Shown here: positions 3,159 through 63,261 of the stretch, piece after piece
How the letters are laid out: every line of letters begins with the position of its first letter
How positions within the stretch are numbered: position 1 is the stretch's first letter
Source of the DNA: a virus
Lineage: Duplodnaviria; Heunggongvirae; Uroviricota; Caudoviricetes
DNA length: 64,000 bases
Strand: one strand, 5' to 3'
IMG/VR virus record: IMGVR_UViG_3300029906_000160
The notes under the pieces: model-generated
The model's input: the letters and a program-made list of their open reading frames with translations, nothing else
The model's database searches: none
What the model was told of the DNA's origin: nothing
Made by a program: the position numbers and the translations under genes

Positions 3159-3575
3159 TTAAGATTTGTATTTATTTTCAATTACAATGTATTCTTTTTT
3201 CTTAATTAAATTATTCCACAAATCAATAAACTGTTGTTCTTCTTCTGTATTTTCTCCAGTATTATATTGAATTAATTCTCCTTCAGAGGTTTCTTCAGTA
3301 ATTGTATCAGGAGTATTCCCTTCCCAAACTATTTTTTCATCATATTGAGATGCCAAAGCTTGATAAACTGGAGATTCCTGTAAAGTTTCTTTAACAAGAT
3401 CTGCAGACATTCTAATAATTGATTCTTTAGATGAATTTAAGATACTCATAAGAATTGTAGAAATAGTACTAACTAGATCTTGTGCAGAATTAACAGGATG
3501 TTCGTTTATTAAATCATGAAAAATTTCAAGGATTGATTCTCTTTCTTCTGGAGATACTTCTAAGTGTATTTTCAT
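3159..3575 (-). CDS. acidic hypothetical protein
   Basis: ORF track; 138 aa, translationally coupled to neighbours. Confidence 0.5.
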   Translation of the reverse strand: MKIHLEVSPEERESILEIFHDLINEHPVNSAQDLVSTISTILMSILNSSKESIIRMSADLVKETLQESPVYQALASQYDEKIVWEGNTPDTITEETSEGELIQYNTGENTEEEQQFIDLWNNLIKKKEYIVIENKYKS

Positions 3576-4696
3576 TAGAATCCAATTTTCTTTTTAGTTT
3601 CTTGTGATTTATAATTATCAGATATTTCTGAATTATATATTTCGGCAAGAGTCATTTCTTTTATTTCTGGGAGATTAAGTTTATATTTCTTATTAAGAGC
3701 TGCAACCTTTTCTTTACAAAGTGGTCTAAACTCATAATTTGCATAACAACGACCTTTACGAAGAAGAGCTTGATCAATCTTATTTATATCTGCATTAAAT
3801 GTACAGATAAACTTAATATTAAATATATCAGATAATAAACCATCTGACATATTAAGAATATTTGCTATTGCTCCACCAAAAGTATTTTCTGATCGCTCCA
3901 TAAGAATCTGTTCACAGTCTTCCAAAATAAATATAGAATCTTTATGTTCCAACATAAATGCTATAAATTCTGGTTGTGCTAGATGTCCTGCGATCGCATT
4001 AGTAACAACTATGTATTCTTTTGGATGTTGTGATAGCAAATGACGAATCATTGTTGTTTTCCCTGAACCAATCTCCCCACGCATGACAATTAAGCCTGAT
4101 TCCCGTTGATCTAAGAACTTTATAATATCATCGTATACTGGAAGAAAGTCATCATTATAATTTTCTTCTATACGAGCATCAGTTGGCTTAACTTTAGAAG
4201 TAATTGTGTAATAATCTCGTCCATCATACGCGATCAATTTAACTTCTGCTTCTTGAGGTTTCTCTTCTTTAAATGGAAGTTTAGATACAAGATCTTTTAT
4301 CTGTTCGTTAAGCTGTTCTATATCGCATATAAAGAATGCAGAAATACTTCCAGATTTAATTTCCCAAAGAATGTCGTCATTAAAAACACAAATTCCAAGA
4401 TCTTGATAATGACCATCAATATAAATATCTTCATCTAATTCTGGTTCTTCATCATCTCTATGAACTTCTTCTTCAACAGCACTTGTTTTTAATTCTGTTT
4501 TAGTTCTTGTAGACCAAACTTCTTTATGATTTGGAAATATCTCTTTAATTAAATCATCTGTAATTTTATCTACATCTACTTCTCTTCCATCAAAAGCATA
4601 TAAAAAAGTACTTGGAATAGCACCCATCTTTTGCATATAAAAAGCAGACTTAGATAAATTACCATAACTATTTAAACATTTTGTGTAATCTATCAT
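3575..4696 (-). CDS. AAA+ ATPase
   Basis: Walker A GEIGSGKTT, Walker B IFILEDCEQ, sensor/arginine-finger-like RKGRCYANYEF. Confidence 0.75.
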   Translation of the reverse strand: MIDYTKCLNSYGNLSKSAFYMQKMGAIPSTFLYAFDGREVDVDKITDDLIKEIFPNHKEVWSTRTKTELKTSAVEEEVHRDDEEPELDEDIYIDGHYQDLGICVFNDDILWEIKSGSISAFFICDIEQLNEQIKDLVSKLPFKEEKPQEAEVKLIAYDGRDYYTITSKVKPTDARIEENYNDDFLPVYDDIIKFLDQRESGLIVMRGEIGSGKTTMIRHLLSQHPKEYIVVTNAIAGHLAQPEFIAFMLEHKDSIFILEDCEQILMERSENTFGGAIANILNMSDGLLSDIFNIKFICTFNADINKIDQALLRKGRCYANYEFRPLCKEKVAALNKKYKLNLPEIKEMTLAEIYNSEISDNYKSQETKKKIGF

Positions 4697-4962
4697 ATTA
4701 ATTTTTATTAAAGAAAAAACTCTTTTATATTCACTATTAACTGAAATAAATTTATTATTGGAATAATAGACATTAACATTAATACGTTTGCTGTTAGTAA
4801 GTCTATCCTTCCATTAGAATATTCTCTATTTGTAAACCATGCGTTTAATAAACATGGAATAATATAAAACATACAAAAATAAAACATAATAAGATAATTT
4901 AAGCCTTATTTCAGGCTAGAGTTAACTTAACCTTAAAATAAGGCTGAAAATGTATCATAATT

Positions 4963-5052
4963 GTCTTAGAGCAGGAGCTGAACGGGTCGAACGCTCACCT
5001 GAGGCTTTGGAGGCCCCCTTTACGGTTTTGAAGACCGCTGTGCTACCATTAC
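4963..5052 (-). tRNA. tRNA with anticodon UCA (reads UGA); tRNA-Trp-like backbone; atypical 25-nt variable region
   Basis: acceptor GGAGCUU/AGCUCC; D-arm UAGUGUAAUGGUAGCAC; anticodon arm GCGGU-CUUCAAA-ACCGU (E. coli tRNA-Trp has ..GGUCUCCAAAACCG..); T-arm GAGCG-UUCGACC-CGUUC; 90 nt. Confidence 0.6.
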
Positions 5053-5168
5053 ACTAAGCTCCTATTAAAATAAAGAACTCTCTATTTGCTTAGATTTATA
5101 ATCTCTCTAAATATTTGTTCTTTTAATTTCTAATACAAATATATAAAGAAATTTTTAATCTTACAAAT

Positions 5169-5630
5169 TTATTTTTGAGAGTTCGAATCGGAAAAGAATG
5201 CAATTACTTTATCAGTAATTTCGTCGGTTAAACCAGTTTCATAATCAATTCCAAAGAATGGTTGACCTGGAATCATATCTGTACGATCATCGATTATACA
5301 CCATCGATCATCTTTAGTTAAATGTTGATCTACCCAATTCTGAATTTCTTTACCACGACTTAATTCTTTTGGAGAAAAGATACTCATTTCAGTACGACCA
5401 ATAATTACACCAGTTAAGCCAGCAGTATATAGTCTTTTACAAGAACAGTTAAAATCGTATCTCCAATCTGAAGACATAACAAGATATGCCCCTGTTTCAG
5501 AGCATATCCTGTTTAGCCTTTCAATACATTTTGGATCTAGATCCTCGTCTATTGCGTTTGGATGATATGATTGATACCAAGTCTCAGAATTAAGAGTTCC
5601 ATCAATATCGAACATAATAAAATTAGCCAT
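5169..5630 (-). CDS. HAD-superfamily hydrolase/phosphatase
   Basis: N-terminal FDIDGTL (DxDGT motif). Confidence 0.55.
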   Translation of the reverse strand: MANFIMFDIDGTLNSETWYQSYHPNAIDEDLDPKCIERLNRICSETGAYLVMSSDWRYDFNCSCKRLYTAGLTGVIIGRTEMSIFSPKELSRGKEIQNWVDQHLTKDDRWCIIDDRTDMIPGQPFFGIDYETGLTDEITDKVIAFFSDSNSQK

Positions 5631-6437: not shown

Positions 6438-7118
6438 TTATTTATAATAAGCATTAAATGAACTTGCACTTATTTGTTCTATATGTGCGTTTTTTCTAAA
6501 TTCTTCAAGAGTTCTTGAATTACAGTAAGACATTGCTGAACGAAAATAACTAATAAAATTGTCACACCATCCAGCTAAAGTATATTTAATAGGAACAAGA
6601 GTTTCTATTCCTTCTGCTGTTTTTGTTGCTTCTCCACTTATTTCTGTTTGAGCTCTTTTTGTAGACATTCCATAATACTTACGTACTCTTTCGCCATTAT
6701 GATTAAATATAACTTTTCCACAAGCTTCTTCACTCATAGCAAATATCTTACCCAACATTACATAATCAGCACCAATTGCAAGAGCTTTGATTATTTGATC
6801 AAAATTAGAGAATCCTCCATCTGCAACTATTTTTGGAATAGATCTATAAGGACTGTAATAAATATATTTTTCTCCATCACAATTTTTTCGTTCTTTTCCA
6901 TTATACTCAGTTGAAACACTTACTGTATTCTTATGAAAAACTAATTTCTGAAGTAAAGAAACCATTGGATAATGAATACTCGAATTTGCCGAAGTAGTAC
7001 AATTGTGAACAACAAAATCATTAGCGATATATTGATGCTCTTTTTCAACTTCAATATCAAAAACCTCTGTAGATTGATACTTAATTTCTACAGAGGTTAT
7101 TTCTACAAAATTAATCAT
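6438..7118 (-). CDS. C-terminal split-intein half (IntC, 39 aa) fused to the C-extein of an IMPDH/GMP-reductase family enzyme
   Basis: N-term MINFVEITSVEIKYQSTEVFDIEVEKEHQYIANDFVVHN (intein blocks F/G ending HN) followed by CTTSAN (IMPDH catalytic-loop remainder); ADGGF..KALAIGADYVMLG TIM-barrel motifs. Confidence 0.8.
   Translation of the reverse strand: MINFVEITSVEIKYQSTEVFDIEVEKEHQYIANDFVVHNCTTSANSSIHYPMVSLLQKLVFHKNTVSVSTEYNGKERKNCDGEKYIYYSPYRSIPKIVADGGFSNFDQIIKALAIGADYVMLGKIFAMSEEACGKVIFNHNGERVRKYYGMSTKRAQTEISGEATKTAEGIETLVPIKYTLAGWCDNFISYFRSAMSYCNSRTLEEFRKNAHIEQISASSFNAYYK
7002..7118 (-). other. IntC split-intein segment
   Basis: blocks F and G; terminal Asn followed by +1 Cys. Confidence 0.7.
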
Positions 7119-8160
7119 ACATTAATTGTCTTATTTTATTTATTGTTTCTGGATTTTTAATATCATCTTTAGTTAAACGTAAAAATTTATATCCATTATC
7201 TTTAGCAAACTGTTCTTTTAATTGATCCCTTTCTTTTTCATCCTCTTTATGATATTTTCCTGTAGAATCATATTCGATTAAAACAGTTTTATTTATAAAG
7301 TAATCATAAATAACATATCCATCACTTAATTCAAACTTTTTTCCAAGTATAATTAAGTTTCCAATTTCAGGAAAATAAAATTTTAAAACTTGATAAAATT
7401 CAAATTCTTCATTAGAGTGAAGACCATAAGATAAATAAATATCTATTTCATCGCCATACAATCGTTTAAGATTTTTATAAACAGTTTCAGCAGATTTGGT
7501 TATTTTTTCATCATGTTTTTCGTTATAATATTTAACTAAAGAATGAATTGTATATTTTTGTGGATTTGCTTTAATCAAAAGATACATCCATGTATATGAA
7601 TTATTAGATTCTGTTTCGATAAAACCTTTACTCTCTACAACAAAATTATATCGATAAAAATCAGTTAATTCTGTGATTTCTTTTTCTGTACAAATTTCTA
7701 AAGCAATTCATACTTTTTTAAGAGTTCTTTTATCTATATTATATTGTTTTGCTACATCTATTAAAGGAGTTTCTTTATTAGAAAACATTTGAAAAGCTTC
7801 TGTAAAAGTTTTTTCATCATAACGATTCTTATACCATTGTTTTACATCAAAAGTATTCTTTAAAGATGGCTTTATTTTTTCTTTTATTTCTTGATTCGCT
7901 TGCTTAAGCATCCGCCCCATACAAGAATCTGTAGCATATTTATTAAATTCCCAACGCTTTCCTCCCGTACGTAAATGTAACGGATTTCCACAACCACAAG
8001 GGCATATAGGATGAACTCCGTTGTATCAAAATTTAACAATATAATCTTCTAATTCCATTTGATGATCTATTTTAATATGAGATCTCAATTTTGCTTTACA
8101 TGAACTTTCTTTTTCATATGTAAATTCTTTACCACAAATTTCGCATTTCAATGTTACCAT
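7111..8160 (-). CDS. free-standing homing endonuclease: N-terminal Zn-finger plus C-terminal Vsr/PD-(D/E)xK-like domain; 2 in-frame TGA read as Trp
   Basis: continuous 349-codon frame once TGA is sense (joins track ORFs 7111-7587 and 7708-7920 plus 7921-8160); CEICGKEF..CPCGCG; C-term VIYDYFINKTVLIEYDSTGKYH..DQLKEQFAKDNGYKFLRL. Confidence 0.65.
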
Positions 8161-8255
8161 ATTTTTAAAATTTTATAAGTTATACAATGTGCTATAGTTG
8201 TACCTCAACTACTAATACAAAAATAAGTATAAAATTTTAAAAATACAAATAAATG

Positions 8256-9047
8256 TTACACAATTTTATCCTCTACCAATAAATATTCAGAAGTTAAATT
8301 TTTTGCTTCAATATAAAAAGAATACTCAGATAAATTATTTTCTGTTACTTTATCTTTGTCTTTTTTATTTATAACAAGAAATTTATGATCTGGAGTACAT
8401 TTTATTTTATTATTTATCATTATTGTAGAATCGGTTGTCTTTTTAAAAGTAGAAACTACTTTTTGATTTCCAAAAATGGTTTTTACTTGTTCTCCAACAT
8501 CAATATCTTCGATATTCTTTTTCGTTCCATTTGCCATTGTAACTTTTGTTCCAGCAACAAAACAGCAACTTCCACCACCAATTCCACAACGAACATAGTC
8601 TATTCCTGCTCTAGCATATTCAAAATATGTATCTGGATTAGCTATATTACCCGCCATTATCTTAATCTCATCTCCGAACTTTTCTTTAGCTTGTTTACAG
8701 AGATTAAGAAGCCTCTTCATATGACCATTAGCTATATCTACACAAACATAGATAGTTTGAATTGGATGATAAAAATCAATCAATCTTTCAAATTCAGATA
8801 AAGATACAGCTATAAAAGTTTTATTAGATAAATCTAGTCTAGTTTCCCAATTAACTGACCTTGGAATAATAGTATTTATCTTATTATCTTGAAACATCTT
8901 CCAGTTATTTTCATCTATAACTGAGGTCATAGGCGCAGTAAATAATGGAAGCATACCATTATCCAAATAAGGATTACATTCACTTCTATGTTCTATTTCA
9001 GAAATGTCTGCTGGAACAAGACAAATGTCGTTAAATGAAAGTAACAT
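8256..9047 (-). CDS. N-extein of an IMPDH/GMP-reductase family enzyme (161 aa) fused to N-terminal split-intein half (IntN, 102 aa)
   Basis: ..YVRCGIGGGSC|CFVAGTKVTMANG (intein block A starting with Cys); block B CTPDHKF; ends with TAA. Confidence 0.8.
   Translation of the reverse strand: MLLSFNDICLVPADISEIEHRSECNPYLDNGMLPLFTAPMTSVIDENNWKMFQDNKINTIIPRSVNWETRLDLSNKTFIAVSLSEFERLIDFYHPIQTIYVCVDIANGHMKRLLNLCKQAKEKFGDEIKIMAGNIANPDTYFEYARAGIDYVRCGIGGGSCCFVAGTKVTMANGTKKNIEDIDVGEQVKTIFGNQKVVSTFKKTTDSTIMINNKIKCTPDHKFLVINKKDKDKVTENNLSEYSFYIEAKNLTSEYLLVEDKIV
8259..8564 (-). other. IntN split-intein segment
   Basis: blocks A (CFVAG) and B (TPDH) located in the last 102 codons. Confidence 0.7.
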
Positions 9048-11265: not shown

Positions 11266-11831
11266 TTATTTTGTATATTTCTTTCGTTCTTTTCTTCCAT
11301 TACCTTTATTAGCACCTTTATACGTAGCAGTTAAAGAATGACAATTTGGACATAATAGTATTAAATTTTCTTCAGAATTATTTAAATAATTTCCATCTAT
11401 GTGTTCGACTTCTAATGGAATTTTATTAGTATATGGATTTGTTTCTCCTCACCCACATCTAGCACATTTATTATTATATTTTTTAAACAAATAACACTTT
11501 AAATAAGAACTAACTTGATACTCGCCTTTTAATCCTGTTTCTTTTCCCTCTTTTCAACGTTTTTCTCATTCCTTTTGTTCTCAATTTTGTTGACATTGGT
11601 GAGAACAAAATTTTAAGTGAGCTTTATGTAAATTCTGTCCACAATTAAGGCAAACGCCATAATCTTTTTCTTTTTGAGTTGTTAATAAAATATCTAATTT
11701 TATTGCTCATCTTTTTATAGTTCGTCAATTAACATTATATAGTCTTCCTATTTCTGCATAAGAAAGTTGTTGAACGTTAATTAAATTGTTTAATGTTTCT
11801 TTGTCAATCATTTTAAAAATCTACTGTAATA
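11266..11831 (-). CDS. HNH homing endonuclease with N-terminal HTH; 5 in-frame TGA read as Trp
   Basis: CARCGW..LEVEHIDGN..NLILLCPNCH; HTH LSYAEIGRLYNVNWRTIKRW; unreadable in the standard code. Confidence 0.75.
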
Positions 11832-12152: not shown

Positions 12153-12227
12153 GAGCGCCAGTGGGACTCGAACCCACGTAGAATGGCTTATGAGACCATG
12201 CTGGGACCATCTCCAGTCTACAGCGCT
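12153..12227 (-). tRNA. tRNA-Met/Ile2 (CAU)
   Basis: acceptor AGCGCUG/UGGCGCU; anticodon loop CUCAUAA; T-arm GUGGGUUCGAGUCCCAC. Confidence 0.6.
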
Positions 12228-12261
12228 ATATTGTATCGCATAAATGTTTATTTATAATATA

Positions 12262-12720
12262 TCAAAGAGTACCTTTACTCTTTATATTATATTTTTTCAT
12301 TAAATCTTTATAAGAAAGCCCAAGATGTTTATCGCTTCGAATTTGTTTTATTAATTCATTAGAATAAATTCTATTTGCTAACGCAGATTTCTTTATTCTT
12401 ACTTTTTCTGGAATATCAAACATATTATCAGAATTAGTTCCAATTTCAATATTTTCCTCTTTATTGTTTAAAGAATTTCCATCTAAATGTCTAATAACCA
12501 TATCTTTTTCATAAATCTTTTCTTTAAACTTTTTATATGCTTGAAATCTATGATGATATACCTTAATATTCTTTCCATTTAACTTAAAAGAAAAATATAA
12601 ATAAGGTTGTTTTCCTCTAGTTCCAACAATGTTGCCTTTTGGACTTGTAACAATTCCATCTTTAGAAATTACATAACCTTTATTTCAAGCTAATTCTTCA
12701 TAATGATTATAATTTACCAT
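12262..12720 (-). CDS. HNH (HNH_3-type) endonuclease; 1 internal TGA read as Trp; annotated stop is itself TGA
   Basis: YHHRF..VIRHLDGNSLNNKEENIEIGTNSDN; track ORF 12262-12501 extends upstream through a TGA to an ATG at 12720. Confidence 0.65.
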
Positions 12721-14510: not shown

Positions 14511-14585
14511 ATTGAACTCACAGTAGGATTCGAACCTACATCTTCCTATAATAATATAGGTGTTCTGTCATTAAACTACATGAGT
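14511..14585 (-). tRNA. tRNA-like element (T-arm UAGGUUCGAAUCCUA); identity unresolved (6-nt anticodon loop by hand)
   Basis: acceptor ACUCAUG/UGUGAGU with G:U pairs; canonical T-arm. Confidence 0.4.
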
Positions 14586-15744: not shown

Positions 15745-16954
15745 GTCGTATATTTTATTTTATAAGCTTAATGTTATAATATTCACAGAGAGAATTTAAA
15801 ACATTTCTTTTAATGTTAAATATTTCAAATAGTTTCTGTTTTGTCTTATATTTACTTCAAGCTTCTAATAAGTCTTCTTTAGAAACTATAGGATTTCCAT
15901 TTTCATCTAATATAGACCTCAATTTTAATCATTTAGCGTTACATTCGCGAGAACAACAAACACTTTTTCTATCTTGAGGTTTATATTCTTTCCCACAAAC
16001 GATACAAATTCGTTTTGGAACAGGTTGTTTATTATTTAAACCTAACTCTGTTTTAGTAGATGGAAGATTATATTGTCTACATCATCTTCTAACAGTATTA
16101 TCTGTAACTCCAAATTGTTTAGCGATATTACGAAAACTTCTAGTTTGAATTGCTTCTTTTAATCATTCTTTTGTCGGATATTCTAAATTTGCGTTTTCAT
16201 TATTCTTTAATCTAGATTTTTGTAAAGTATCTAATCTAGATTTTGTACTACATTCTTTAGAACAAAAATCAGATGTACCAGAAAACTCTTTACCACAATA
16301 CTTACATTTCTTAATTTTGTGTTTTACTATAAGCTGATTTTCTTTCTTTATATTTTTACCACAATAATTATCTGTTATTGCATGACAATTTGGACACAAT
16401 AGTTGTAAATTTTCAATTCTATTATCAGTATTAATTCCATTAATATGATGGACTTCTAATGGAATTTGTTGTCCTTCTCATTCTGTTTTATTACATTTTT
16501 CACATTTTCATTCTTTTAATCCAAATTCCACTAATCTAATTTTTAATTTAGATTTTTGATAATCTGAATTTTCTTTAAATATATCTTCTTTAGTATATTT
16601 CTTTCTAACTTTTTCTTTTGTATTATCTATACAAAAATGAGAAGTATCAATATTATATTTTTCTATAATTTTGTTAATACGAGAATAATTTGTATTTGTC
16701 GCTCTAATTCCTAAATTTTTACAAACATCGTTTATATTCTTACATTTTGGAATTAAATCAACAATAATTTGTTCATATTCTTGTTTAGCTTTTTCTCGTT
16801 CGATTATCTTTTCTCTATCTTTTTGTCATTTAGTACCAAGATAATAAGCTACTAATGATTTTGTAGAATTACATTTTGATGCAATTTGAGTATAACTTAA
16901 TCCTTGATTATGTAATTCTTTAAATAATTTATATTTTTCTTCAGCTTCAGTCAT
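15745..16954 (-). CDS. HNH homing endonuclease with multiple HTH domains (about 402 aa); 7 in-frame TGA read as Trp
   Basis: LEVHHINGINTDNRIENLQLLCPNCH; C-terminal HTH ..NTVRRWCRQYNL with W=TGA; track shows only a 78-aa fragment (16163-16399). Confidence 0.75.
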
Positions 16955-22309: not shown

Positions 22310-23200
22310 TTAACTAATTTCTTCTATTTCGTGAGACACGGTATCTAAATTAAGAAAAAATTGAACTTTTTCATATTTTCTAGGCAATCATATATTATCT
22401 TTTTCTGCATAAATTTTTTCAACAAAAAATTTTATTTCTTGAGAATTACAATTACGAATATAAGAACTACATCCAGTTTTTGTTTGTCTTTGAATAACTT
22501 TTGTTTTTAAACCAAAGTATTCTAAAAGCTTTTGCATTCCAGTTCAATCCTGATTATATGAACTAGTAATACTAAATGTTGTACTAAAAGTAGTTTTCTT
22601 AGACTGAATATAATAACATCCATCACCGTCTATATAACCTCTCAAAAAGTAAGATCAATATTCTTTTGGAACATAGTCTATAATTTTTTGATGTGATTCT
22701 ATGGATTTACTATATTTGCCTAATTGCTGTAATTGTTCTGCAATATCAATTCGATTTGTATGAATTTCAATTTGAGGTTTTCTGTTTTTTCTTATTTGAT
22801 GATAAATATTAAATTGCCCTAACTTTTGAAATATAGGAAATACTTTATCTCCGTCTTCTTGAACAATTTTAATAGATAAACCTCCTTTTTTAGAAATATA
22901 TCCATCTGCTCAAAAATATCCTAAAAAATATGCTAATTCTTTTGGAAACTTTGTTTTAGAAAAATCAATAGTAAAATCAAAATGTTTGTCTTGCTCACCA
23001 TTGAATGTTAAACTCTTTATTTCTTCCTCTGTGACATTAATTGGATGTTTGTTCGTTCCAATTTTTAAACGAGACCCCATTCCGACAATACTAGCAACAG
23101 TTCTATCTAATTTTTCTCCACAAACGATTGCTCCAAATTTTTTAAGATTCTGTTTTAAAAATTCAATTTCATCTTTAGTTCAGGATTTATTTTGTTTCAT
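22310..23200 (-). CDS. LAGLIDADG homing endonuclease (two motifs), free-standing; 5 in-frame TGA read as Trp
   Basis: LAYFLGYFWADGYIS and WSYFLRGYIDGDGCYY; 297-codon continuous frame only with TGA as sense. Confidence 0.75.
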
Positions 23201-23829: not shown

Positions 23830-24702
23830 TTACTCGTTAAGGGCGGAGCATTCCGAAGCACTTGCTTCTACCACCATTTCAGGAATAGTCGATGAACCTT
23901 CAACCTCATTAGAGGAAGCTTGGCTGCTGATTACCATCTCAGGCGTCCCAGCAATTAACTCCGTTTCACTTAATGATTTCTCATTAAGAGCACAAATTAT
24001 TTCTTCAAATTTTTTCTTTTTTCTTGGAAGGAAAACTGTTGCGTCTTTATATATAAAATCATAAAACTTTTTAATATTTTGTCTACCAGAATATTCCATT
24101 GTACAAATATCGGAATTAATTCTACGTGAGTTTAACTTAGTTTGTTTAAATCCTAGATTATCAATTAAATATTGTTGATAAGCTGAAATAAAAGAAACGT
24201 ATCCGGTAATATTAAATTTAACATTATGAATAATACGTTCTCTACGTCCCTCTTTTCGTGTGGGATCGTTTACTCACATTTTCTTTCTTTTTCCATTTCA
24301 AATACAACCGTCTCCATCAAAATAACCTCGCATAAAGTGAGAAATTAAATCTTCTGGGACTTGTCATTCTGTTGGTCAAGACAAATTTTTAGTTTTACGT
24401 TTAACACATCCTTGTTTTTCTAATGATTCTGCAATATGTTTTCCGTATACATAAAATCGAATTTGATCCTCATGATTTTCATTTGTATCTTTTCTAATAA
24501 GTAATGGATAATCCGATTTCATTTCTTCTTTTAATTTATCAACAACACATCTATCTTCAATTTGAAGTGATATTGATATCTCTCCAGTAGTTGGATGTTC
24601 ATGATTACATCCATCTGCATACAATAATCCAAGAAAATATGCCTTTTCTGGCGTATTTATCTCATCAAAATAAGTTTCATCATAATTATGTTTTCTTTTC
24701 AT
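23830..24702 (-). CDS. LAGLIDADG homing endonuclease between the two phosphatase halves; several in-frame TGA read as Trp
   Basis: KAYFLGLLYADGC and HFMRGYFDGDGCIW; joins track ORFs 24376-24702 and 23830-24099. Confidence 0.7.
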
Positions 24703-34430: not shown

Positions 34431-34466
34431 AGTGGAGATATCGGGAATCGAACCCGAGTCTTTTAT
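34431..34466 (-). other. tRNA-like 3' fragment (T-arm UCGGG-UUCGAUU-CCCGA plus acceptor) bordering a 750-nt ORF-free region
   Basis: no matching 5' half found by hand; 9-nt direct repeat TGGAGATAT also at 34683. Confidence 0.35.
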
Positions 34467-35211
34467 TAATCCTATATAGTTTTTATTTATATGCTTAGTT
34501 AATTTTTCTAAACTAACAAAATAACTAAATTGATTAAAGAGTGTTTAGTAAAACTCTGAATTTAAAGAATTATAATGAAAAGAGCTATGCGAAACTATAA
34601 TTAAAAGGCATAGTGGGAGTAAAGAACTCTTTGAGTGTCTTCACTACTTTTGAGAAAAGATTTTTAATTCCGTTTATTTTTGGAGATATTTAAAGTAATC
34701 ACTTACTGCATAAAACATATACCAAATCAATAAAATCAAATCCAAGCATCCCCAATGCAAAGATAAGAAAAAGTTTTAAATATACAAATAAAAATGGATA
34801 CTAAGTATAAATAATTCGCCTGCCTTTCTAATTTCAAAATTGGACGCGCTATATAGCTATTTTATAAATATACTTAGTATCCAAATAAAAATGGAAGATC
34901 TGACTGTATGTTTAAGTAACCCAAAATGCTAGTTACATAACGCATAATCCCTACAGCTAGGCTCTATTCTCTTAAATAGACTTTAGCACCAGATCTTCCA
35001 AAAAATTGGTTATAAGGTTACCAACCCAGCCTAGGCAACTTTAATCTAGAATTCAGTTGCTTCGTTACTTCAGACGCCAAATAATATTGTCTGAGAGTCA
35101 CCTCTATCTTTAATATGTATATAAGGAAGCTGAGGAAGCTATTATACACATCCGGATCTTTATATACTTCTCCTAGTATAATCCGGCTATACTAAGAGGA
35201 CTTATAAAAGA

Positions 35212-59574: not shown

Positions 59575-60384
59575 ATGGTAAAGAAAAGAGAGAGATTAGA
59601 AGATACGCCGGAATTTATGAAAAAATATGGTCAAGCTTTAAAGAGAATGGATGAACGTAACAAAACTGCAGAAGAAAAGAAATCCAAACTTAATAAGCAA
59701 GACTTACAAAAACTCCCCGGATTCGCAGAAAATTATGAAGAAAGTCTTATTCGACAATTATTCGAAGAAGATCTTAAGAAAAAGATTGAAAAATATCTTG
59801 GAGAAGATGATAAAGAATCGCAATATTATCAAGACTCATGAGAATTAAAACATCATAAAAGAGACGGATTGTGAGATGTTAAAGCTGATGAGAGAATTGA
59901 ATATTTTGATCCTGAGTTATCTTACGAATTAACTGGTTATCGTCCCATAACAATGACTGAAGGTTTGGACTTTGATCCAGAACCATTTAGAGAAGCAGCT
60001 AGAATTTATGAAGAAACTGGAAAATATACTGAATATCCAGCAGGTTGTAAACCATACAATGATTATTGAATGGAACAACTTAAACGATGTGCTGAAGGTT
60101 ATACCGTTGGAAAGTATAGAATAACTGGAGATCATTATTTCTTCTTAAATTTCTATCATATGCAAACCGTTAATAAGTCTAGTGCAAAACACGTAAGAGG
60201 TCGTATACAAAGCTTTCCAATGTTTGCTGTAAAACAGTATGAGTTCTTTCATTACGTAGAACTATGCGAATATACAGGACACGATGTTGTTATGTTAAAG
60301 GCAAGAGCTTTAAATATTATCTTGAAGCCATTAGCAGTAATGTTAATGTTAAATCCCGCAATATCGGTAAATACTGAGATGTAA
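59575..60384 (+). CDS. terL: terminase large subunit, N-terminal segment up to the Walker-A position (..DVVMLKAR)
   Basis: T4 gp17-like pattern ..FPMFAVKQYEFFHYV..VVMLKAR; 3 TGA read as Trp; frame ends 25 codons later in TAA. Confidence 0.55.
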
Positions 60385-61022: not shown

Positions 61023-61922
61023 ATGACTACAACAAAAATAGAACGTGAAAAAATAAAACAAATAATTATTGATGAATACATAAACACTCCAGAAAAAGAA
61101 AGAAGTTTAACTAAACTAGGAAATAAATATGGAGTTAAAAGACAAACAATTTCTAAATGATTAAAAGCTAAAGGATTTGAAATAATTAATTATCAAAATA
61201 GATGTAGAATTGACGAAACAGTTTTTGATAATATAGATACAGAAGAAAAAGCATATTGATTAGGTTTTCTTTATGCTGATGGAAATATTAGTACAGTAGG
61301 AAATCGTTTAGAAATGAATTTATCTTCTAAAGATTTAGATCATATGTTAAAATTTAAAAAATTTTTAAAATTAGAATCTGAAATTAGAATTGAGGATAAT
61401 CATGGAGAAGGAAAAGAAATTTGTAGATTAGCTGTCAGAAATAAACATATCTGGCAACAATTAAATGATAAAGGATGTGTTCCTTGTAAGTCTTTAATTT
61501 TAATATTTCCAGATAGGTCTATATTTAAATCAGAAATTTTAATTTATGATTTTATACGAGGATATTGCGATGGAGATGGAAGTTTAGGTATGTATATTAA
61601 AGAAAATACAAAAACTCATAAATGTTGAATATCTTTTGTAGGAACAAAAGATTTTTTAAATGGAATTGAAAATTTTCTTAATATTAAAGGAACAATTCGT
61701 AATAAAACTTGTACTAATTGACAAAATCAAGCTTATAATCTTAAATACGAAGGAGTAAAAGCTAGAAAAGTAGCAAGATTACTTTATGAAAATTCATCAA
61801 TTTATATGAATAGAAAATATAATAGATTTTTACAATTCTGCTCCTTTGAAGAGGGATCTTCAACAGCAAAATCGAGCAAAATCGAAAGACGCTGTAATGC
61901 GAATATCGAGGTAAATAACTAG
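61023..61922 (+). CDS. LAGLIDADG homing endonuclease inserted within terL; 4 TGA read as Trp
   Basis: AYWLGFLYADGNIS and FIRGYCDGDGSL; N-terminal HTH. Confidence 0.75.
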
Positions 61923-62079
61923 ATTGCGAAAGGCTAGTTATCACCGTAACGCGTAGTAATTGAATAAATATAATATTACCAAGAGTGCTCGACATCTAGA
62001 ACAGATGAAAATGTACGCTGAACTATAGAGAATAAGAATCTATAGAATTTAGAGATAAAAAACTCTAAAGATAACAAAA

Positions 62080-63261
62080 TTGGGTGATTCCGGAATTGCA
62101 CTTGCGGGATTATCTGAAATGTTTAATAATCCTCGTGCTTATAATGTATTACCTTACAAAAATAAATATACTCGTGATGGCAAGATTGCTTACACTGGTT
62201 TCTTCATTCCAGCTCATGAGTTCTCTTTAAATCCAGAATTTGTTGATTCTCGTGGAGTCACAGATTCCGTTAGATTTAAACAATGATATGAAGAACAACG
62301 AAAAAAGATGGAAGGTCAAGCTCTCTTAGATTATTGTGCAGAACACTGTTTTACTCCTGATGAAGCGCTTCTTAGACAAGGTGATAATATCTTTGACTCA
62401 ATTGTTATTTCTGAACGACTCACTCAAATTAGAGTATTTAAAGAAAATTATCAAAAACCTGAACCAACAGCACTTTTATGAGTTGGAGAAGAAAGAAAAT
62501 TTGTAAAAGCACAACCTCTAAGTACGAGTAAATTACTTGTTGTTGAACCTCCTCTTTTAGACATGGATGGAAATCCTTATAATAATTTATATGTTGCAGG
62601 AATAGATGCTATTGATATGGGTAAAGAAGATTCTGCTATAGATTCTGATGTATCTGATTTCTGCATTGTAATTAAAAAACGTGCATTTGGTATGGATTCT
62701 CCAAAATATGTGGCCATGTATAAAGATCGTCCACAGAAAATTAGAGATGCATACGAAATTGCTATGAAACTTTGTGTATGATATAATTGTAAAGCAATGT
62801 TGGAGTATACAAAAATATCTATACAAAAATACTTTGAACAATATAAAAAATCTCACTTATTTATGGCTCGTCCTGAATTTGCAGTATCGAATCGTGCAAA
62901 AAGAACCACAACTAAAAATCTTATTGGTTTACCTGCAACAGAATCTGTTATCAAGCATGGGTTGGAGTTAATCGAAATGTATGTTGAAGACTATTGACAA
63001 GATATTATGTTCGATGAAATGCTTGAACAACTTTTAAATTATTCTTATGAAGAAAAAAGAAAGTTTGATATTGTAGCAGCCTTATCAATGTGTGAGATTG
63101 GAGATGAAGCAATGCTGGGGTTCTCTGTTAAAAATGCTCAATCTACTAAACAAGAATGAAAAGACTACGGATATTATTATGATGAGAATGGGCATAAAAG
63201 ATTCGGAGTTATTCCAGATAAAAATAATAATATAATACAACCACCAAAATGACACTTTTAG
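62080..63261 (+). CDS. terL: terminase large subunit, C-terminal nuclease segment
   Basis: ..LLVVEPPLLDMDGNPYNNLYVAGIDAIDMGKEDSAIDSDVSDFCIVIKK.. (RNase-H-fold nuclease motif); several TGA read as Trp. Confidence 0.55.

Follow-up and report, generated by a model that had tools for sequence, protein, structure and literature searches.

The tRNA(UCA) gene and its variable region

We analysed a 64,000-nucleotide (nt) stretch of DNA, called the window here, from a virus of the Caudoviricetes (IMG/VR record IMGVR_UViG_3300029906_000160), and in it a gene for a tRNA with the anticodon UCA, which we refer to as tRNA(UCA). The initial annotation of this DNA had placed a tRNA gene at 4963-5052. The gene is real, but these limits missed the first 11 nt of the acceptor and D arm and overran the 3' end by 8 nt: ARAGORN calls a minus-strand gene of 93 nt at 4971-5063, labeled 'tRNA-SeC' with the anticodon tca. 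The mature body spans 4972-5063, its last base being the discriminator G73 (4972), and the 3' CCA is absent from the gene. The Rfam tRNA model RF00005 matched the gene with 52.4 bits (gathering score 29, E 2e-8, model span 1-71) and outcompeted RF01852, the model of selenocysteine tRNA (tRNA-Sec) in the same clan. Two of the proposed checks, the covariance model RF00005 and ARAGORN, thus both call a tRNA with the anticodon UCA. The minimum free energy (MFE) fold is a cloverleaf with a single extra hairpin and a 7/5 acceptor/T arrangement. As the initial annotation had stated, this is the only UCA tRNA in the window, where ARAGORN finds 13 tRNAs and one tmRNA, and the genes on either side of it encode an AAA ATPase (3575-4696) and a HAD phosphatase (5169-5630, Pfam HAD_SAK_2). 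The parts of the gene are as follows.

4971-5063, minus strand: tRNA(UCA) gene (ARAGORN, Rfam RF00005, cloverleaf MFE fold)
5057-5063, minus strand: 5' strand of the acceptor stem, AGGAGCU, pairing with 4973-4979 (AGCUCCU) over 7 base pairs (bp) (fold; all 7 pairs covary in relatives)
D arm, minus strand: GUGU-AAUGGUA-GCAC, a 4-bp stem with a 7-nt loop, followed by A26 (fold)
5022-5038, minus strand: anticodon arm GCGGU-CUUCAAA-ACCGU, with the anticodon UCA at 5029-5031 (ARAGORN, Rfam, fold)
5018-5021, minus strand: 5' linker AAAG from the anticodon stem to the extra arm, positions 44, 45 and beyond (fold, alignment)
5001-5017, minus strand: extra arm, a 5-bp stem GGGGC/GCCUC with the 7-nt loop CUCCAAA, CCA at 5008-5010; the proposed pseudo-anticodon arm (fold, covariation)
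4997-5000, minus strand: 3' linker AGGU, its conserved GGU being positions 46-48 (alignment of relatives)
4980-4996, minus strand: T arm GAGCG-UUCGACC-CGUUC (Rfam, fold, covariation)

The D stem and the anticodon arm are separated by position 26 only, as in canonical tRNAs. The two linkers and the extra arm together make a variable region of 25 nt, the string of which had been quoted exactly in the initial annotation; its suggestion that an extra hairpin might form there is borne out by the 5-bp arm in the fold and by covariation across relatives. The conserved GGU of positions 46-48 comes after the arm, which puts the insertion point between 45 and 46, where class II tRNAs carry their arm too. 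What had gone unremarked is that the loop of the arm, CUCCAAA, is the canonical tRNA-Trp anticodon loop. In related phages a normal tRNA-Trp(CCA) often adjoins the suppressor tRNA, and in 13 of 13 such neighbouring genes the anticodon loop has exactly this sequence.

The 5' half of the gene (its first 40 nt) resembles annotated tRNA-Trp genes of Bacillus phages, with 91-94% identity over 33-34 nt, and these partial matches were the only ones in the GenBank phage collection. Exact copies of the gene are present in two further public contigs (ENA). These copies, together with 55 distinct relatives of the same architecture, indicate that the gene is not a chance match.

A promoter and terminator scan around the gene gave no signal exceeding the shuffled background. 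Directly downstream of the 3' end lies a long hairpin at 4900-4948 (AGCCUUAUUU...AAAUAAGGCU, minus strand), which was not called by the terminator scan and has only chance-level Rfam matches. It may be a processing or termination signal.

The extra arm in related genes

A first scan of IMG/VR required a UCA anticodon arm with CTCCAAA 6-14 nt downstream and gave 22 loci, against about 2 expected by chance on a rough estimate; 21 of them are tRNA(UCA) genes of large phages. A second scan required a UCA anticodon arm and a T arm 20-32 nt away and left the sequence between them unconstrained. It returned 65 distinct genes, and UCCA was present in the variable region of 39/39 genes with a 7-bp acceptor model and G73 and of 0/23 selC-like genes. 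When only the D arm and a UCA anticodon were required, 20 distinct genes were found, 15 with the arm, all of them with a NUCCAWA loop; the other five are ordinary class I tRNAs without it. The variable loop of arm-less relatives is UUGGU or UAGGU.

All loci pooled, there are 55 distinct Trp-like genes that bear the arm, with 46 different arm stems and the loop NUCCAWN (CUCCAAA in 22, GUCCAAA in 22, UUCCAAC in 4, GUCCAUA in 2, plus variants seen once). Pairs 2-5, which follow the closing pair, are formed in 50-55 of the 55 genes. An alignment of 30 sequences has the arm helix 92.5% paired, with compensatory changes in three of the four modelled pairs; one pair occurs as CG in 12 sequences, GC in 7, AU in 4, GU in 4 and UA in 3. 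The structure as a whole lies far above shuffled and slid controls. The loop is retained while the stems turn over, which points to purifying selection on the arm, and on this comparative evidence the arm and its UCCA loop are very probably under selection.

As a control, the same unbiased scan was rerun with a CCA anticodon. It yielded 65 distinct long-armed G73 tRNA(CCA) genes, which shows that Trp-type tRNAs of phages often have a variable arm of some kind. CCA was found in the arm loop of 0/65 of these genes, whose loops are GAAA (17), GUAA (7) or other short loops, compared with 33/34 of the G73 tRNA(UCA) genes read with the same parser. A scan free of any anticodon requirement recovered the arm also on Trp-like bodies with the anticodons CUA (locus L175) and UCG (L098, L102). 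The UCCA arm loop is strictly associated with non-CCA decoding anticodons.

The best overall explanation, to which we assign a probability of roughly 0.6, is that tRNA(UCA) is a functional suppressor tRNA whose variable arm serves as a pseudo-anticodon arm for the tryptophanyl-tRNA synthetase (TrpRS). The strongest competitor, which we regard as unlikely, holds that a class-II-type arm was inherited within a phage lineage of long-armed tRNA-Trp and that UCCA is kept for a reason other than TrpRS, be it a contact in the tertiary fold, an enzyme that modifies or processes the tRNA, or some factor of the phage. The long-armed tRNA(CCA) genes of the control, which lie in large phage contigs, agree with this in that the arm alone is not tied to suppression, and base pairing between the CCA of the arm loop and UGG in the D loop is conceivable. 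Inheritance alone sits badly, however, with a UCCA loop in 39/39 of the UCA but 0/65 of the CCA versions, with the recurrence of the UCCA arm on bodies whose D stems are short or long and whose anticodons may also be CUA or UCG, and with a motif that copies positions 33-37 of the Trp anticodon loop.

Much less probable is a two-headed tRNA, in which alternative stacking would let the CCA hairpin decode, so that one tRNA would read both UGG and UGA. The dimensions of the second hairpin do match those of an anticodon arm, the 4-nt linker behind it might do duty as a class I variable loop, and ARAGORN finds no tRNA-Trp(CCA) in the window. On the other side, a canonical 1-nt junction joins the first hairpin to the D stem, most relatives have a normal tRNA-Trp(CCA) gene in addition, and many arms break the rules of decoding loops (G at the equivalent of position 32, U at that of 37, loops of 8-9 nt, mismatched closing pairs). 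Moreover, U34 is already able to wobble to UGG. The relaxed loops, with G as first base, U after CCA and lengths of 8-9 nt, argue for recognition of the arm by a protein rather than decoding by the ribosome.

We give still less credence to the arm being a neutral relic of the tandem anticodon-arm duplication that produced the UCA copy. The two hairpins are adjacent, equal in size and differ in their loops by one base (CUUCAAA and CUCCAAA), but their stem sequences are unrelated, and a neutral relic would not be expected to keep its loop while the stem changes by compensation in 46 distinct versions.

Several groups found in the scans deserve description in their own right. Seven tRNA(UCA) genes (L026, L030, L031, L056, L060, L061, L070) have a 7-bp acceptor, G73 and an arm loop GUCCAA(A/G) or UUCCAAC on a body with a very different, Sec-like long D stem. 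One of them, L030, scores 47.7 bits on RF01852, at the tRNA-Sec threshold of 47. The Trp suppressor family may be connected to selC-like scaffolds through this group.

The CUA gene, at 7800-7892 on the plus strand of L175 (IMGVR_UViG_3300028805_000058, 146 kb), is an amber suppressor with the anticodon loop CUCUAAA, a Trp-like body, G73 and the arm GAGGU-GUCCAAA-GCCUC, with a normal tRNA-Trp(CCA) 8 nt upstream of it. It could read TAG as Trp rather than as the usual Gln. The UCG genes stand in tandems of long-armed tRNAs, at 7276-7467 of L098 (Riemerella anatipestifer RCAD0997 chromosome, NZ_CP081184.1) and at 6077-6259 of L102 (a Flavobacterium metagenome-assembled genome). One member of each tandem is a tRNA(UCA) with G1, U73 and the arm loop CUCCA; the other is Trp-like (A1, G73), with the anticodon UCG of the Arg CGA/CGG box and the arm loop CCUCCAA. 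The UCG tRNA may be an adaptor that assigns a sense codon to Trp on a bacterial chromosome.

A U73 group comprises tRNA(UCA) genes of the viral contigs L035, L055 and L082 and the gene at 7276-7367 of L098, with G1-C72, a 6-bp variable arm and a 5-nt loop AUCCA, AACCA or CUCCA. These loops hold both NCC (Gly-type) and CCA, and the genes might belong to phages in which UGA is Gly (code 25). Some of the long-armed tRNA(CCA) genes (loci L185-L284, for example L188, L221 and L220) have class II-like D arms, their variable arms being capped by GNRA or other short loops; we know of no description of a class II-like tRNA-Trp. Finally, L104, L128, L142, L154 and L160 share the D arm and have about 46 nt between the D and T arms, including GGCAUCCAAAUG. 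They are not called by ARAGORN and may be tRNA-Trp genes with an insertion or intron.

TGA recoding and the amino-acid identity of tRNA(UCA)

A greedy gene map of the window was built with TGA as a sense codon. It contains 103 in-frame TGA codons against 143 TGG, the TGA codons falling in about 40 open reading frames (ORFs). Among the 37 genes without an internal TGA, the stop codon is TAA in 30, TAG in 7 and TGA in none. The codon usage divides the window as follows.

337-40281, minus strand: early/replication block in the standard code (TGG only, stops TAA/TAG), holding tRNA(UCA), the tRNA island and the tmRNA (TGA/TGG counts per gene)
40457-64000: late/structural block including the terminase, Trp mostly TGA (gene-wise TGA/TGG counts, terminase homologs)
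11266-11811, 12226-12720, 15755-16954, 22310-23200 and 23830-24702, minus strand: TGA-only ORFs in the early region and tRNA island (codon counts)

These five homing-endonuclease-like ORFs, with TGA only and 0 TGG, are the exceptions in the early block, and their translation should depend on the suppressor tRNA. Pfam finds HNH at 15755-16954 and LAGLIDADG at 22310-23200 and at 61023-61922, with the domains running through TGA codons. A LAGLIDADG-like motif is visible by eye in 23830-24702; 11266-11811 and 12226-12720 have no annotation. Sequence searches of the PDB with two TGA-containing ORFs gave no match for one and weak LAGLIDADG matches only for the other.

The C-terminal terminase ORF (62059-63258) has six TGA and no TGG. 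Its TGA columns are W in most of 120 homologs, a test that is partly circular because five of six homologs checked are themselves TGA-recoded and were translated with TGA=W by the database. One homolog in the standard code (P0093, 58% identical, 0 TGA and 6 TGG) has TGG opposite four of the six TGA sites and TAC opposite a fifth. Distant standard-code terminases, which align poorly, have F/Y/C/L (MT835470.1) and F/E/Y/G (crAss cr55_1) at the TGA positions. Given the independent standard-code homolog, TGA=Trp is well supported for the late genes and homing-endonuclease genes of the window, in agreement with the recoded phages already published.

The acceptor end of tRNA(UCA) fits this assignment. 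The major identity elements of bacterial tRNA-Trp are G73, the first acceptor pair and the anticodon nucleotides; G2-C71, G3-C70 and G4-C69 are strong elements, and A1-U72 and G5-C68 minor ones (PMC9976931). In tRNA(UCA), A1-U72, G2-C71, G3-C70, G5-C68 and G73 are present. G4-C69 is missing, since pair 4-69 is A-U, the pair being G-C in most relatives; G73 is found in 55/55 of the arm-bearing relatives. The decoding anticodon is U34-C35-A36, with C34 lost, and the full U-CCA-A motif occurs only in the loop of the extra arm. Thirteen phage tRNA(UCA)s have been reported to insert Trp in an E. coli extract (PMC12636597). The initial annotation had proposed a Trp-type tRNA that reads UGA as Trp, and TGA as a sense codon in about 40 ORFs, TGG in the standard-code terminase homolog at four of the six TGA sites and the Trp acceptor set all agree with it; tRNA(UCA) is almost certainly the UGA-to-Trp suppressor of a recoded phage.

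Other identities were considered. The base-paired arm between 45 and 46 is a class II trait, and a long arm could make tRNA(UCA) a substrate of SerRS or of another class II-type enzyme, so that UGA would be Ser or ambiguous: SerRS senses how large a long variable arm is, and tRNA-Ser also carries G73 (PMC9976931, PMC7373986). This has very little in its favour when set against the TGG or aromatic residues of homologs at TGA sites, the unusually long linkers of the arm (4 + 4 nt) and the C2-G71 pair of 9/30 relatives, an antideterminant for SerRS in E. coli tRNA-Leu (PMC9976931). G73 is likewise an antideterminant that excludes Leu and Tyr identity (PMC9976931). With Leu and Tyr excluded in this way and the TGA sites matching Trp or aromatic residues rather than Ser, a class II identity is very unlikely.

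A derivation from tRNA-Sec had also been raised in the initial annotation. With selC, tRNA(UCA) shares the UCA anticodon, the long variable arm and G73, which is insufficient for membership. Its 7-bp acceptor and 5-bp T stem differ from the 8/5, 13-bp acceptor/T branch of selC, and its D arm of 4 bp and 7 nt differs from the 6-bp stem and 4-nt loop found there. True selC genes, which the scans also returned, have acceptors of 8 bp and unrelated arm loops and score 64-82 bits on RF01852. No selA, selB or selD was found among the ORFs scanned, and selenocysteine insertion sequence (SECIS) elements were not searched for explicitly. A selC gene or recent derivative of one serving Sec insertion is thus scarcely credible: the ARAGORN label and the long-D-stem relatives that reach the tRNA-Sec threshold speak for it, and the 7/5 arrangement, the short D stem, the preference of Rfam for RF00005 and the number and placement of the TGA codons (103 in about 40 genes, aligned with TGG, unlike SECIS-dependent insertion) led us to reject it.

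The window is a fragment of a TGA-recoded crAss-like gut phage. Its GC content is 31%, and its terminase is distant kin of Crassvirales terminases. An intein in an IMPDH-like gene, a LAGLIDADG ORF splitting the terminase, many tRNAs and a tmRNA are in line with the 'Zeta' crAss-like phages of Yutin et al. (PMC7886860). The "mycoplasma-type solution" of the initial annotation is apt for a Trp tRNA with the anticodon UCA, but the setting is this phage and not a mycoplasma-like cell. The GenBank phage collection held nothing close to the first 20 kb of the window, and a search of IMG/VR with the HAD protein gave no syntenic relatives.

Further features of the window were noted. The terminase large subunit lies in two pieces on the plus strand (59575-60384 and 62119-63261), with the LAGLIDADG ORF 61023-61922 between them and TGA codons in both pieces as well as in that ORF; the interruption is probably a self-splicing intron. 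The IMPDH/GMP-reductase-like gene at 6438-9047 (minus strand) is split by an intein: 8256-9047 holds the Hint N-terminal part and 6438-7118, in frame with it, the intein C-terminal part. Between the intein parts is an ORF in another frame (7111-8160) with 2 TGA codons. In a tRNA at 14514-14585 (minus strand, 49.2 bits in Rfam), CCUAU and AUAGG enclose an anticodon loop of 6 nt, AUUAUU, and ARAGORN assigns it no anticodon, reporting '???, ta'. The phage tmRNA at 34432-34753 (minus strand) encodes an unusual tag ending in ...FNYSFA, and tmRNA relatives at L006, L009, L010, L019 and L132 have tags ending in SFA or AFA. The typical bacterial tag ends in ALAA.

A proposed pseudo-anticodon arm and its known counterparts

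In the mechanism that we propose, tRNA(UCA) would presumably be made early, since the early region around it is in the standard code and the neighbouring genes share its strand. Its anticodon UCA would read TGA in the late and homing-endonuclease genes and insert Trp. For charging, the acceptor end would supply the bacterial Trp identity set, the true anticodon being without C34, and the variable arm, which has the dimensions of an anticodon arm (5 bp and a 7-nt loop), would offer the Trp anticodon loop as a pseudo-anticodon. TrpRS would then read U-CCA-A on the extra arm while the ribosome reads UCA, so that amino-acid identity would be uncoupled from decoding. The position of the arm at the top of the anticodon stem, between 45 and 46, on linkers of 4 nt, should give it flexibility. 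Expression, charging of tRNA(UCA) with Trp and contact of TrpRS with the arm are the steps that we infer, and from the sequence comparisons we rate this use of the arm by TrpRS as somewhat better than an even bet.

The enzyme would presumably be the unmodified TrpRS of the host. No HIGH/KMSKS signature of an aminoacyl-tRNA synthetase was found in the window, and Pfam gave no match to TrpRS or a release factor in 18 scanned ORFs of the window or, by precomputed annotation, in the genes of the 10 kb past its left end. We presume the host enzyme because no TrpRS was found in these 74 kb of phage, and Borges et al. likewise supposed host TrpRS to be the charging enzyme (bioRxiv 10.1101/2021.08.26.457843).

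Several points weigh against this interpretation. The real anticodon keeps C35 and A36, only position 34 being lost; E. coli TrpRS charges some phage tRNA(UCA)s (PMC12636597); and five related phage tRNA(UCA) genes have no arm. Taken together, these suggest that the arm is not obligatory. In some arms the loop is 8-9 nt long or the closing pair is mismatched. The counts given above are not independent events, because the genes of the family are related. That the variable arm reaches the anticodon-binding domain of TrpRS is an assumption, and about 40-50 kb of the phage genome lies outside the 74 kb and may encode a TrpRS.

A broader claim, for which we see slightly less than an even chance, is that phages and some bacterial mobile elements have a portable Trp identity cassette, made of a Trp acceptor stem and an arm copy of the Trp anticodon loop, which frees the anticodon to become UCA, CUA or UCG. 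If so, Trp could be assigned to any chosen codon even where the host has the standard machinery. The U73 genes with 5-nt (A/C)UCCA loops give a hint that a further synthetase might be served in this way, GlyRS reading NCC being one example.

A natural pseudo-anticodon, if true, would answer for Trp how a host synthetase that reads anticodons charges stop-codon suppressor tRNAs, and tRNA(UCA) would be the first natural tRNA known in which the triplet read by the synthetase is apart from that read by the ribosome. It would also account for tRNA finders mislabeling or missing such genes ('SeC' or '???'), and it would provide a design for suppressor or sense-codon-reassigning tRNAs charged by an unmodified synthetase, of use in genetic code expansion and tRNA therapeutics.

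In recoded phages, the reading of UGA as Trp in late genes by a phage-encoded tRNA(UCA) is already published (PMC7886860, PMC12386605, bioRxiv 10.1101/2021.08.26.457843). The tRNA-Sup(TCA) systems of Zeta and other crAss-like phages, of Agate and Jade phages and of Lera phage have in common with the window a phage UCA tRNA, TGA=Trp mainly in late genes with early genes in the standard code, low GC, many tRNAs and a wealth of introns and inteins. These papers give the anticodon and an isotype guess, 'Trp or Arg', and leave open how the TrpRS of a standard-code host charges tRNA-Sup(TCA). Neither they nor the functional screen of phage suppressor tRNAs (PMC12636597) mention the extra arm or the anticodon mimicry of its loop, and a literature search for a natural pseudo-anticodon or anticodon-like variable arm, in which subscription journals were poorly covered, gave the engineered case only. 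The 25-nt variable region with its Trp-anticodon-loop arm appears to be new.

The tRNA-Trp(UCA) of Mycoplasma and Spiroplasma is likewise a tRNA of Trp identity in which CCA has become UCA and which reads UGA. These are known as ordinary class I tRNAs with a co-evolved TrpRS, whereas the phage tRNA(UCA) has an added arm and presumably must use the TrpRS of a standard-code host. With selC and the class II tRNAs (Ser, Leu, Tyr) it shares the long variable arm between 45 and 46, and with selC also UCA and G73; selC differs in its 8/5 branch and 6-bp D stem. Class II arms have short loops, tight junctions and no anticodon-like motif, unlike the 7-nt U-turn-type loop with CCA and the 4-nt linkers of tRNA(UCA).

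Anticodon-arm mimics in mRNA, namely the E. coli thrS operator and the yeast AspRS mRNA, are also stem-loops bound by a synthetase whose cognate anticodon loop they copy, and there a swap of the triplet swaps the synthetase (PMC7373986). They are regulatory and not aminoacylated, whereas in tRNA(UCA) the mimic would act in cis on the tRNA to be charged.

The engineered precedent is the pseudo-anticodon V-arm of allo-tRNAs (Mukai 2020, PMC7590224), a hairpin that mimics the cognate anticodon arm and recruits an anticodon-binding domain while the real anticodon is that of a suppressor, and that enhanced aminoacylation. In tRNA(UCA), too, a hairpin outside the anticodon arm copies the cognate loop, and the mimic tracks the loss of the identity triplet. 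The engineered system is synthetic, built on a 9/3 chassis, with a GUG triplet and a HisRS to which a further anticodon-binding domain is fused, and its effect was modest; the phage tRNA(UCA) is natural, 7/5 and Trp-specific, and its synthetase is presumably unmodified.

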